A stretch of DNA of 64,000 nt from NCBI GenBank assembly GCA_951406725.2, contig OX597819.1:1736001-1800000 (forward strand). The letters run 5' to 3'. Each line of letters starts with the position of its first letter. The first letter of the stretch is position 1. Of this stretch, positions 15,020 through 58,800 are shown one piece after another. Origin of the DNA: Octopus vulgaris (Eukaryota). The translations under genes and the position numbers were made by a program. The notes under the pieces were generated by a model. It did not search any database, was not told the origin of the DNA, and worked only from the letters and a program-made list of their open reading frames with translations.

Positions 15020-15485
15020 TTTTGGGAGATCAACAAGAAAGTATTTTAAAATAAAGATCTAACCAGTAAGAGTAAGAAAAGACTCCGGGGAATATACACA
15101 GAACCGCCTTACATATGTGTGGCAACCCAGAACATAACTGGCTTAACGACGTTGCGGAGATGTGGTTCCTATGAACAATATTGGTGCCCTATGTACACAC
15201 AGTGACAACACTGATGTCGTTAGACAAGCAGTAACTAACAGAAATGTTTTATACACAAGGAGGTAACAGACTTACTTTATTGGATATCATATAAAAAATA
15301 ACCCCAGAGTTTGAAAACTTAATGACAAATGGTAAAGGTAAAGGAGGAGTCAGCCAGGGAAAGCAGAGAGAAATAATATGGCGACAGAATGACCAACTCC
15401 AGTGTGGAGCAGTGGATGGGGAATAAAGGTTTTGGACCTCCATGATCACCGGCAGTTGTAGGCATGGGACATTATGAGGACATGA
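15020..15485 (+). mobile_element. Decayed RTE-clade LINE 3' fragment
   Basis: Broken frames read EMWFL..., QTYFIG.H, FENLMTNGKGKG..QGKQRE and SMIT, matching the RTE C-terminal pattern EMW..R...F.GH...LE.L...GK..G.R.RGR.R. Confidence 0.6.
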
Positions 15486-16749
15486 AGAATGTGTATGTGT
15501 ATGCGTGTGTATATATACTCACATACACACACAATTACACACACACATATTGCAGTGAAGGTTATCTAAAACACTTGTTCTCAACATGTGGACCCATTTG
15601 CTTCTTATTTTACTCAAATGGACCCTCATAAACATTCGATATTTAAAAAATCCTATTACATATTTATAATCAGATATTAGGAATCGTATAAAGAAACTTG
15701 TTAAAATATTTTGTATATTGTTGAATACTAACAAATTTCTTGCGCATAAATTTTAACAACAAAATCTTATATGGAGTTCCAGTGACTATATAGACCCCGT
15801 TTGAGAGTCACTGATGTAGAAGAATACGAGAATTGAAAAGAGCGTAGAGTAAATTATATAACAATATATATAATGGGTGGAACACTGAAACATGCAAATA
15901 TCGGAGTTGGTGGAATAAAGATGCTTGCAAATATTGAAGGCCAGCGTGCATAAAGTACAAACAAGTCTCTGCTGCATTTTCCAAGAGAGTTTGTTTCTTT
16001 TCTCTAAATAAATTACAGTGAGTTTAAAGAATTTTCATGTCACCCATTCAGATTTGAATTCCAGAGATTTTTTCTGTGTCAAATATGAAAATTTGGCAAT
16101 AGCTCCTAAGCTACACAATAGCCTATATGCATCTATATTAATGTGTACATAAGTAGGAGTGTTTGCATTTATATTGGTGATTGTATTAGTGAATCTATTA
16201 TAAATATAATAGGAAAAGAAAGACTGAAACGTAGAATGCGATAGTTTAGTTACTCCGATATGAATTGTTTCCAACATTTAATCAGTTGTTCAGACAGAAG
16301 GAGTCTGTGATACTTACGTTTGAACAACTGACGACATGTAGTAAAATTTCGAGTGTAACAGTTCACTCCGTCGGTCAAGATAAGGTCATATTTATTTATA
16401 TATTTTTCTTACAAGACTCGTCACGTTTCCTTCATCTGACAATTTTCAGAGGAATTTTGAAGTGAAAGAAATAGACCAAACCTTGATGATAATAATTTTA
16501 ATCAATGAACATATCTACTCTCTCTCTCTCTCTGTCTCTCCGACGATTGTTTAACTGGCTGAAACTTGGAATTCCCTGTCAACAATATTCTTGTACTCTA
16601 TAAAAGACTTGTACTCTACAAAAGCATAGAGTAACCACCAGATTAATGTAAAATCGTAATTATAACTAAACTAAACATGTTTGTGTGTGAATGTATGTAT
16701 GCATATAAATGTGTATATATATATTTTTATTTGTATATATATATATTAT

Positions 16750-19941: not shown

Positions 19942-20499
19942 TTAGGATTTTTAAGTATTTATTATGAATGTGTGATTGTTTATAAATTAAAATAATTAAT
20001 ACACGTATGGTAATGAGATTAGGGCTAGTGGAATATACATTTACGGAAGTTCGAATGCCAATGTTTCGTAAATTTAGAGTTATACTGTTCAAAAGAAAAT
20101 TAAAGTAGAAAAATATCAAATAAACAATTGTTGGCATTCAATATATATTAAAACTTTTAATTACTATGATTGCTAAATTAACACTTAAGGATTGATTATT
20201 TAAATATTTACTTATAAACTAAGAAATATATGAAAGGAAAAAAAATCTAGTCTTAAAATTACTTATGTTATAAAACAAAATAGAATTCATGTTTCTTAAA
20301 TTGAACAGTGACCATGACACATCACCGAAAGCGAAACTGCGTGAATATCAAAGAAATTTACTCAGAAAATTGAAACCAAATGATTGAGATGGGGCAAAAA
20401 CGGAAAAATAAATTAGCCAAACAGCACCTACCAATAACATAAAACTGACCCTCGCTCACTCAATTTCCATGTTTTATGCATATCTGGTTTATTTTACAG

Positions 20500-20586
20500 G
20501 AATGAACATTTTCGTCGCCTTTTTCGTCTTGTTGCTATTGCTGGCAGAATCCACTCCTCGGGCGGCCTCGTCCATTCCTTTAATAG
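20500..20586 (+). CDS. nAChR-family (Cys-loop) subunit, M2 / M2-M3 loop exon, alternative copy A: (G)MNIFVAFFVLLLLLAESTPRAASSIPLI(G)
   Basis: Acceptor ttttacag ends at 20499 and donor gtgagt starts at 20587. 87 nt, phase 1-1. Aligns to M2 from 4' through the conserved AE..P......PLIG of nAChRs, and splices in frame to the exon at 54608. Confidence 0.93.
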
Positions 20587-20626
20587 GTGAGTCAATCTCA
20601 TTTTCCACCACTTATTTATGTTACAG

Positions 20627-20710
20627 GAATGAACATTTTCGTCGCCTTTTTCCTCTTGTTGCTATTGCTGGCCGAGTCAGTCCCTCATGCCGCAACAGTT
20701 CCATTGATAG
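20627..20710 (+). CDS. nAChR-family subunit, M2 / M2-M3 loop exon, alternative copy B: (G)MNIFVAFFLLLLLLAESVPHAATVPLI(G)
   Basis: Acceptor gttacag ends at 20626 and donor gtgagt starts at 20711. 84 nt, phase 1-1, no stop codon. Paralogous to copy A, with mostly synonymous changes at conserved residues. Confidence 0.88.
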
Positions 20711-23287
20711 GTGAGTTTTTCTCCATTCTCTACCACTGATTAGAAAAACGGTGTTCGTTTCACCAATGACGTCATCGTTTTCACGATCCCATATCCATGA
20801 AATGTTTGACCATAGTAATGCATTCTTTCGTTAAACTCACAAGAAAGCACTACTACAGGTCAAACTTCTCACCCAAGAGTGTAATACCCTCTTTGTGCAA
20901 TGCTAAGGTAATTTATTCATATCTTCATCACCCTTGCACGAGAGCACAATAGGTTATATAAGATTGATGTTAAAAGCATTTTCACTTAACTTGGGTCAAC
21001 GTTTGGGGCTTAATTTAAAACAAAATAATTTCTGAAAGAAAGAATATTTACTAAAAACTTCACAGTACACACATTTACTAAACAAGTTCACCATACACAG
21101 ACACACAAACGCACGCACACACGCACGCAACATCGCACTTGTTAGTGTTTAAAAAGCATTTAAACAATAATCAATATTCTAATACTTCATAAGATATTTA
21201 TTGATTTTTAAAACATGTACGTTGAGTATACAATACAATTTCGGTGAAAGTATAGAAATAGTTATCTAAATATACTACAGATTTTAAATATAGGAAACGT
21301 AATAATTATTAATGCAGAGAACATTAAATAAGCAATGTAGATTGGTTTCTAGAAGGAGAGAAGAGAAATGGGACGTCTTAATATTTTTGTATAAGTGTGC
21401 AACTACGATGAATTGATATATGACTCGATATGTAGCACACTCCAATTTATATCTATATCATAGAGAACATAATTTGTTTTCAATCTTTACAGGAGTTTCA
21501 TACACATACTACGCAAAATCTACAGAAATAGGCTATCTTGAAACAGTTATAGATTTCTAAATTTGGTACAACTCCTAATTTTGGAGAGAGTAACAGCCGA
21601 TTAAATGTGTTCTTGTACTCCACGTGAGCACATTTTATCGTCCTCTAAGTGTTGATGAAAATCCAAAATTGATTCAAAGCATAAACAAACATAGTTAAAC
21701 ACAGTAAAACATTTTCTCAGGTGTACAACTGATTCTGTTATCCATTATTCCGTTTACGTAAGCATTAATTGAAAGTGTATTAAAATCTCGAATTTTAGAA
21801 TAAATAGAATGATAATTTTTGTAGAGAATAGATTCTATTTATGTAGGATTTTATGTAAGTTGCTAGGTTTTAAAAATTCCTGTTTTATGGCGGGATTATA
21901 AAGCCCGATATTTTCCATTTATTTTAATACTTAAGTATCATACACGAATCGTTGCTTGAGAGCAACTGATTGCAAATAAGGACTTTAATTTCTGCATATT
22001 CATCAAGTGATGTATCACACATATTAAACATACCACGTTAATTTCATATATAGTAATAATAATGCTCACTTGATCCTGACATATGTTTTGGTAATGTATT
22101 GGTAAACTATCTTTTAAGTTTTATATACATTTAACACTTCGGGGAGCAAGAAATGTTTTCCTCATTCTTAATCAATGAGAGCGAAAACACATTGGAGAAT
22201 GACAGTGAACGAGGAAGAATTAAATGTTGAGTTGTGTGTCGAGGAACGATGGGACTGAAAAGTGGTTGGCGAAGGGAAGAAGATAACTTAATGGAGGGTA
22301 AGCCTAGAACTCGAGAGATAACATATTTGGGTAAAATTGAAGGATCGAAGCAGTAAGGAAGCAGATGGTAATTGATAAGTTCAAAATAGAAGACTTTCTT
22401 TTGGCAAGATCGGTGATCATAGTAGTCACCATGATGCCAATAGTACTGTCTGCATTCGTCCTAGCTCAGGCTGCAGATTAGAAATGCATATTCACACAAA
22501 GTCGTATTCCAAAATGATCATCATTGTGAACATTAAAATAAAGTTAAAATTGAAACAAACGAAGGAGATATCCCGAAGGTAAAAATGATGCGTTGTCCCA
22601 TGTATTTCCCAGAGGGTCCTAAAGTACCGGACGTCGGGGAAAAGTAAATGGACTAACCAAGTCAGTTGAAATGCGTTGGCTTATTGTGTGTGGGAAAACG
22701 CGTTCATTACCGGAGCAATCATTTAGACAATGCTTTCTTCATTAACTAACTTATAAAGCACAGCAGAATTTGTATGTGATGCAATGTGTAATATTGGCAG
22801 ATATGCAACCAAAAGTTTGGGTGATTTGGAATAATGATTTGGGTCTGGTGATTGGTGTTTTGTTATTGGTATAAAGACAGGTGTAAAATGTGTATTGAAT
22901 GTATTTAAAATTGCCTTACTATTCAAGTCTGAGTACCACAGAATGGATTACTGTTGCGGGAAAGAGTGGGGTTGTTATGAATTCACATAAAAGAAATATA
23001 AAAACAAATGTTGTGTCTACTTTCATGCACATATAATTCATTGTCATTTCCTGCTATTCACCAGTTTGTCCATGCTCTCGTAGTTTAAGAAAGGAGAAAA
23101 ACTTTCACACTCCACGATGAGGGACTTTGTCCAAAATTCATCCGCTATTCTTAATGGTATATGAACTTAAAAAACAAAACTTTGTATTTTTATCAATAAA
23201 TTCGATATTTGCTGACGCAGACTACCAACATCTCCCTGGACTTTATTTTTATTGTAATCTATTTATATGTATATTTATCTATTTCAT

Positions 23288-54607: not shown

Positions 54608-54726
54608 GTGCATATTTTTGCCTTAGTATGGTGATGATTACCCTATCCACAGTATTTGCTTGTGTTGTTGCGAATATGTTTTTCCGTGGTGTACGAGTGC
54701 ATAGAGCACCGTACTGGCTGCGTGCA
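54608..54726 (+). CDS. nAChR-family subunit, M3 exon: (G)AYFCLSMVMITLSTVFACVVANMFFRGVRVHRAPYWLRA
   Basis: Acceptor gtttcag ends at 54607 and donor gtaagt starts at 54727. 119 nt, phase 1-0. Hydrophobic M3 followed by the typical post-M3 V.N...R......P.W.R motif. Confidence 0.93.
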
Positions 54727-58338: not shown

Positions 58339-58800
58339 GTTATGATTGACGGAATAGCGCGTGTCCTTTTTCTCCGCGACCAAGTGATGGACAAGAATCA
58401 TAAAGAACAATCCAAAATGCGAAACTGGAATGTAAAGGTGACTGGCGAAAATAACAAGAAATTTCCTGCAGCCGATGCGAAATTTGCGAAGGTGCGATTA
58501 CTTGAAAATAAAGACGAAAAAATGTCTGCATCATCGGATACACTTGAACCCTCGGTTCCTGATACGGTCATAGAACAACATGATGATAGACAGTCTCTGA
58601 TGCGCTCTGCCATTCTCGAAGAGGTCAAAGCTATCCGGGAAATGTTGGATAAAGTCCAAGAAAAAAAAATGAAATTGGAAGAACGTGAAAAATTGGTGCG
58701 AGAATGGCGAGTGATAGCTTGCGTTACAGATAGACTGTTTTTTATCGTGTACGTATTGGTCAACGTTATTGGGGTTCTAGTGATATTTGTTAGAAAATAA
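58339..58800 (+). CDS. nAChR-family subunit, terminal coding exon: intracellular loop, MA helix, M4 and stop (VMIDGIARVLFL...EWRVIACVTDRLFFIVYVLVNVIGVLVIFVRK*)
   Basis: Polypyrimidine tract and cag end at 58338. Phase 0 matches the previous exon. Contains the nAChR EW..A.V.DR.F motif before M4; TAA stop at 58798-58800. Confidence 0.94.
   Translation, partial: VMIDGIARVLFLRDQVMDKNHKEQSKMRNWNVKVTGENNKKFPAADAKFAKVRLLENKDEKMSASSDTLEPSVPDTVIEQHDDRQSLMRSAILEEVKAIREMLDKVQEKKMKLEEREKLVREWRVIACVTDRLFFIVYVLVNVIGVLVIFVRK

Follow-up and report, generated by a model that had tools for sequence, protein, structure and literature searches.

Near-identical first halves and diverged second halves in the tandem M2 exons of an octopus nicotinic receptor gene

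Why should two neighbouring copies of one exon be almost identical in their first halves and silently saturated in their second? The question is raised by two pore-coding exons, A and B, in a 64-kb stretch of Octopus vulgaris DNA (the window). An earlier note, made from the letters of the sequence, took them for an old duplication with both copies under selection, and explained their likeness either by gene conversion or by constraint at the RNA level. The features concerned are as follows.

20500..20586, + strand: exon A, 87 nt, phase 1-1, encoding M2 from G4' and the M2-M3 linker, with V13'; the type matching other molluscs
20587..20626, + strand: intron between A and B, 40 nt, GT-AG, with branch-point-like adenosines at intron nt 14, 28 and 32
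20627..20710, + strand: exon B, 84 nt, phase 1-1, with L13' and an altered M2-M3 linker one codon shorter
20494..20545, + strand: copy A of the shared 52-nt block, made up of 32 identical nt, the 13' base and 19 more identical nt
20621..20672, + strand: shared 52-nt block, copy B, the counterpart of copy A
20526..20526, + strand: position 1 of the 13' codon, G in A (Val) and C in B (Leu, at 20653)
20546..20586, + strand: diverged 3' block of A, counterpart 20673-20710; 7/9 silent differences, four residue changes and a 3-nt gap
20711..20742, + strand: intron start after B, still resembling the intron start after A
54608..54726, + strand: the constitutive exon that follows (M3), 33,897 nt beyond B
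58339..58800, + strand: last coding exon (cytoplasmic loop, M4)
G000:C6:1631827: upstream exon (loop C, M1, Pro-Ala-Lys), ending ~124.7 kb before A, outside the 64-kb window

Peptides encoded in the window match named Octopus proteins (nicotinic receptor alpha subunit), and the domains PF02931 (Neur_chan_LBD) and PF02932 (Neur_chan_memb) score above cut-off in 3/3 proteins. The genomic upstream exon encodes vicinal cysteines (YACC) and terminates in ...ESPAKLQLG, with Pro-Ala instead of Glu before M2, a feature that marks anion-type nicotinic channels (PMC4055736). From these residues the gene is predicted to encode a Pro-Ala (anion-type) nicotinic receptor alpha subunit that passes chloride. 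Lymnaea LnAChR-B and Schistosoma SmACC share with it the Pro-Ala before M2, a YxCC loop C and a near-identical M2 peptide (PMC4055736), but the accessible text of that paper describes no twin M2 exon for them, and chloride selectivity is, for the octopus channel, a prediction. In an unrooted tree of 29 family members, which holds no insect rows, the octopus gene falls in a mollusc clade separate from LnAChR-B (100/100 support). In one public octopus model of the receptor gene (P0008, P0115) the greater part of the loop C-M1 exon is missing, probably through an annotation error, since G000 has this exon intact.

Exons A and B are tandem, homologous and equal in phase, with intact splice sites (both are flanked AG...GT). 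No third M2 exon was found in the 174-kb gene span, and two C1 paralogues have one M2 exon each (30 kb and 20 kb around them searched). The numbering of position 13' was confirmed by ungapped alignment to the solved human alpha4; this residue points into the pore, within the hydrophobic gate (PMC10757554). Use of exon B would change the gate at V13'L and also the linker between M2 and M3, which takes part in gating.

The pattern described in the earlier note was reproduced in each of its particulars. Over exon nt 1-46 the copies differ at one base only (20526 G / 20653 C, GTC/CTC, V/L), the preceding 6 intron bases are identical, and the repeat period is 127 nt with an intron of 40 nt. Silent differences are absent from the M2 codons (0/13 informative codons in the 5' block) and present in 7/9 codons of the 3' block once a one-codon gap has been placed. 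That gap is new: a codon is missing from the M2-M3 linker of B, and the copies therefore differ in length (87 nt vs 84 nt). The silent split between the 5' and 3' blocks gave p=0.0002 in a Fisher test, for which the breakpoint was picked post hoc, and p=0.0017 in a longest-run permutation. With octopus codon usage, 13/13 identical codons would arise at saturation with a chance of ~1e-7, while the 2/9 identical codons of the 3' block compare with 2.6 expected at saturation. The downstream intron starts are indeed related, with 18/25 aligned positions matching after the donor hexamer (p=0.006 against mononucleotide shuffles, region picked post hoc). Three levels of likeness therefore adjoin: near 100% in the shared block, ~70% at the intron start, and saturation in the 3' block. 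GC3 is raised in the shared block only (10/13 vs 5.6 expected; p=0.012, a single post hoc test) and equals background in the 3' halves. Identity reaches right up to the 13' base from either side and takes in the third position of its codon.

A repeat of 127-nt period could be collapsed or mis-polished during assembly, and the earlier note had asked for raw reads on this point. Both copies and their lone difference were recovered in 4/4 independent DNA runs from four studies, none of them flagged as the source. Each run yields a 155-nt contig that covers 20496-20650 without a difference, and depth over the shared 32-nt piece is about doubled. The 4/4 independent runs rule out an assembly artefact, the chance of which we put at practically nil. 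The split identity of A and B is real, statistically solid and specific to this pair.

Its specificity was established by comparison with other receptor genes. A metagenome scan for loci with M2 exons, of which the best 80 of 88 were kept, yielded tandem M2 exons, two or three in number, in at least 15 loci among the 80 listed, many of the others being short contigs. Each set lies inside a single Pro-Ala nicotinic receptor gene (L049, L057, L059, L061, L063-L067 and L076-L081; L067 has three M2 exons). Among the matches listed, 17/17 other twin pairs show silent divergence that is even along the exon, at 38-100% in the 5' block; their longest identical runs are 7-23 nt, vs 32 nt in the octopus pair, and their periods 150-1697 nt, vs 127 nt in the octopus pair, the shortest. 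The 17 pairs are not independent cases, since the loci form ~10 groups of near-identical sequences. L003, a C1 paralogue whose M2 peptide equals that of A, differs from A at 11/14 silent codons. This diverged paralogue and the 17 diverged pairs listed rule out a general constraint on M2 codons.

What the other pairs do share with octopus is the choice of residue. V13' in one exon and L13' in another occur in 14/15 other twin-exon loci and 15/17 other twin pairs among the matches listed, and in 0/15 of these V/L pairs is the third base of the 13' codon common to both copies. In the annelid-like loci, whose closest named protein is Dimorphilus DgyrCDS7085 (an assignment that is weak where a contig carries the M3 exon only), V comes first in four loci, and the DgyrCDS7085 model itself contains two M2 peptides; in the bryozoan-like loci, nearest Watersipora, L comes first. 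A bivalve-like locus in the octopus gene's own clade (L052) has one M2 exon between the M1 and M3 exons. Independent origins of the V/L twin exons are likely, although an ancestral twin pair with many losses could also be accommodated. The recurrence of V/L at 13' in cephalopod, annelid-like and bryozoan-like genes was not found described in the literature searched; repeated independent duplication of like exons is itself known from ion channels (Copley 2004, cited in PMC8373072).

Two further features of these loci were observed. In L081 and L049 the upper part of M2 carries, in some alternative exons, Asn or a basic residue. Bryozoan-like loci seem to duplicate the M1/Pro-Ala exon too (L080:2397-2504 and 2825-2932, L079:1795-2168), one copy carrying Ala-Ala instead of Pro-Ala.

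Public models of two Octopus species contain A only, B only or neither (15 of 26 cluster members listed), transcript-derived proteins contain B alone (4/4), and A and B occur together in none of the proteins examined. Steric exclusion operates where fewer than ~50 nt separate a branch point from the 5' splice site before it (PMC7969005), and all candidate branch points in the 40-nt intron, which are predicted only, fall below that limit. An intron of 40 nt would be too short for joint binding of U1 and U2, so that A could not be joined to B. A and B are old and probably mutually exclusive pore exons and, as every possible branch point lies within the limit, steric exclusion is likely to govern their choice. 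A similarly close spacing of branch point and upstream 5' splice site, under ~50 nt, is known from alpha-tropomyosin exons 2/3 and OGDH exons 4a/4b (PMC7969005); in octopus, however, the spacing comes from the 40-nt intron rather than from a distant branch point in a longer one, and the branch point is predicted. Separately, three models (P0105, P0107 and P0278), from two Octopus species and a transcript of a paralogue, skip the M2 exon in frame and would lack the pore helix.

YCAY is the binding site of Nova/Pasilla. The 361 nt around the exons (20456-20798) hold 16 YCAY motifs, a density reached by only the top 1.2% of windows across the 174-kb gene span (p=0.046 vs dinucleotide shuffles), and a YCAY-binding factor is a candidate regulator of A and B. 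The densest YCAY windows of the gene, with up to 34 per 360 nt, lie at ~16270-16620, ~4 kb upstream of exon A, and may be a simple repeat. A similar pyrimidine-rich motif is found before A (20456-20470), in the 40-nt intron (20592-20607) and after B (20716-20735).

The age of the duplication can be judged from proteins of other cephalopods. The exact B peptide, gap included, is present in four transcript-derived proteins of a more distant cephalopod lineage, all four of them B-type. Outside the M2 exon that lineage differs from Octopus at 18/420 residues (two proteins counted) and Argonauta at 5/420, which sets the B-bearing lineage ~3.6 times further from Octopus than Argonauta, a distance that we infer to be decapodiform-level. 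As the B peptide is unchanged at such a distance, the duplication is old, and the earlier claim of an old duplication with selection on both copies is supported. B is likely the derived copy, for other molluscs carry A-like peptides. Orthologous cephalopod DNA was found neither among the best 80 of 88 metagenome loci, nor by off-frame translation of A, intron and B among 48 short proteins, nor in viral or prokaryote collections. An alternative is a recent duplication in which selection on exon-specific splice signals, or a burst of local mutation, quickly separated the 3' halves; the similar intron starts and the near-identical 5' halves would then follow from a single event. We nevertheless regard it as highly improbable, given the full B peptide in the distant lineage and 3' silent sites that sit at plain saturation.

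For the likeness of the 5' halves the earlier note had named the right two causes, conversion and RNA-level constraint. Conversion is modestly favoured, since the identity is specific to this pair. We see about an even chance that rare gene conversion or unequal exchange homogenised the acceptor and M2, with L13' spared or re-made. In such an event the acceptor-plus-M2 block would have been copied from one exon onto the other, by a one-off overwrite or a staggered exchange; the 13' difference would have been skipped and spared, or re-made by one transversion, likely under selection; and the linker block, with its four residue changes and 3-nt gap, would have been protected from homogenisation. 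The event would have been episodic, not steady. In view of the recurrence of V/L in the other pairs, selection may plausibly act on 13', or a single transversion may have brought the difference back.

Several results speak for conversion: the edge is sharp, with 13 identical informative codons followed by 7/9 different ones, three levels of likeness adjoin, the duplication is old, the GC3 rise is confined to the shared block as GC-biased conversion would give, and the shared block has no pairing partner above chance. Where selection opposes conversion, high divergence is seen only around the selected sites (PMC3924837). The red/green opsins of that study resemble the octopus pair in their low divergence outside, and high divergence around, functionally different residues, but the octopus exons lie 127 nt apart in one gene, and their one selected site has no surrounding peak of divergence. 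Against conversion, tracts must stop at, skip or re-make exactly the 13' base, the pair in L079 has a 63-nt intron yet escaped homogenisation, the Dscam exon arrays are free of conversion (PMC3236188), and GC-rich silent sites fit an RNA element as well. Toy models built on rough site lists reproduced the whole pattern in no more than 0.2% of draws (32 settings) under steady conversion with selection, and never (36 settings of 160 samples) under homology-dependent conversion. Both sets of models reject steady-state conversion as a sufficient cause, so that only a one-off event fits, and a one-off event is hard to falsify.

Constraint at the RNA level would account for the identity abutting 13' on both sides, and for the failure of steady conversion, by one shared splicing element, a protein site or docking partner, that froze the 5' silent sites while the 3' halves diverged early for exon-specific signals. 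This account is possible, if somewhat doubtful. The intron starts that are still alike and the density of YCAY motifs around the exons are consistent with it, as, weakly, are four DNA runs with other organism labels, from close relatives: 4/4 of them have 0 differences at 20496-20900, whereas three carry 3 substitutions plus a 2-nt gap at 20300-20523. Precedents come from Drosophila, where alpha6 exon 8b is nucleotide-identical across species (PMC1919356), and from coleoids, where conserved editing slows nearby mutation (cited in PMC8382921). The 8b precedent, however, concerns conservation between species and not between two copies, and constraint of this kind is shown by 0/17 other twin pairs listed and by no paralogue; it also needs 13 codons frozen in two copies beside 9 that are saturated.

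The earlier suggestion that docking-site or ADAR pairing might be involved found no support. No complementary partner above chance was found in 159 kb of intron, and the local fold of the exon region is ordinary (z=0.05). Blastn of six sub-regions against the 174 kb returned matches of chance length only, and a duplex scan of both introns gave a best value of -40.8 kcal/mol vs -37.4 to -39.9 in 4 shuffles, a level at which imperfect duplexes can hide. An ADAR substrate formed by the shared block and a complementary stretch of intron, with recoding of codons 5'-7' in A and B as the result, seems improbable to us. A>G changes at 20502, 20505, 20506 and 20508 would yield M5'V, N6'D/S and I7'V, and the transcript-derived proteins do show A>G-type differences at other positions; yet M-N-I is unrecoded at 5'-7' in 4/4 transcript-derived B proteins, which shows only that any editing there is non-majority, and the last 37 nt of the shared block contain a single adenosine, a silent one. 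A further 12 cephalopod proteins were counted, but as genome models they carry no information on editing, and receptor names are absent from the supplement of PMC8382921 (editing). Within 20 kb the best duplex partner for both exons is a colinear antisense-like stretch at 15316-15408, but it was matched by 2/47 and 3/29 shuffles in energy and by 60-98% of shuffles in alignment over whole introns, and was dropped as a pairing partner for not exceeding chance. This stretch is single-copy in G000, its reverse complement aligns loosely along both whole exons, and the 13' base is unpaired in the predicted duplex.

A rather unlikely, more far-reaching form of the RNA-level account may be stated. A and B would carry an identical in-exon RNA element whose silent sites have been frozen since before octopuses split from the distant cephalopod lineage, and the exons would compete for a single splicing partner, the choice flipping V13'/L13', a switch reached separately in cephalopod, annelid and bryozoan chloride-type nicotinic receptors.

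Either-or TM2 exons are already established for the insect nAChR alpha6 (PMC1919356, PMC2064938). Its exons 8a/8b/8c are, like A and B, old tandem copies of a TM2-coding exon in a nicotinic subunit; they are spliced one at a time, and one copy is very highly conserved. The octopus gene differs in being of the Pro-Ala anion type, in the 40-nt gap between its exons, and in copies that are nucleotide-identical over half their length. The Pro-Ala subfamily and the single M2 exon of the clade-mate L052 speak against a shared origin with the alpha6 exon 8 cluster, and the octopus duplication is likely independent of it, given that bivalve-like member of its clade. The A and B isoforms of octopus are already in public annotation. 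In the literature searched, most subscription papers being outside its scope, we found no publication on the octopus pair, and only the Dscam paper on conversion between mutually exclusive exons; 'alternative splicing' does not occur in PMC6896357, nor 'isoform' in PMC13174522.

If conversion erased all M2 differences but one, evolution would have pinned the functional residue, on which the splice choice turns, to one base, and the recurrence of V/L at 13' among twin exons in other phyla suggests that the switch is useful. The pair would then allow an inexpensive test of the tuning of inhibitory cholinergic channels in octopus and its kin. It would be, moreover, one of few examples of conversion acting between mutually exclusive exons, something sought in Dscam but absent there. 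If the sites were frozen instead, they point to a shared splicing element inside coding sequence.
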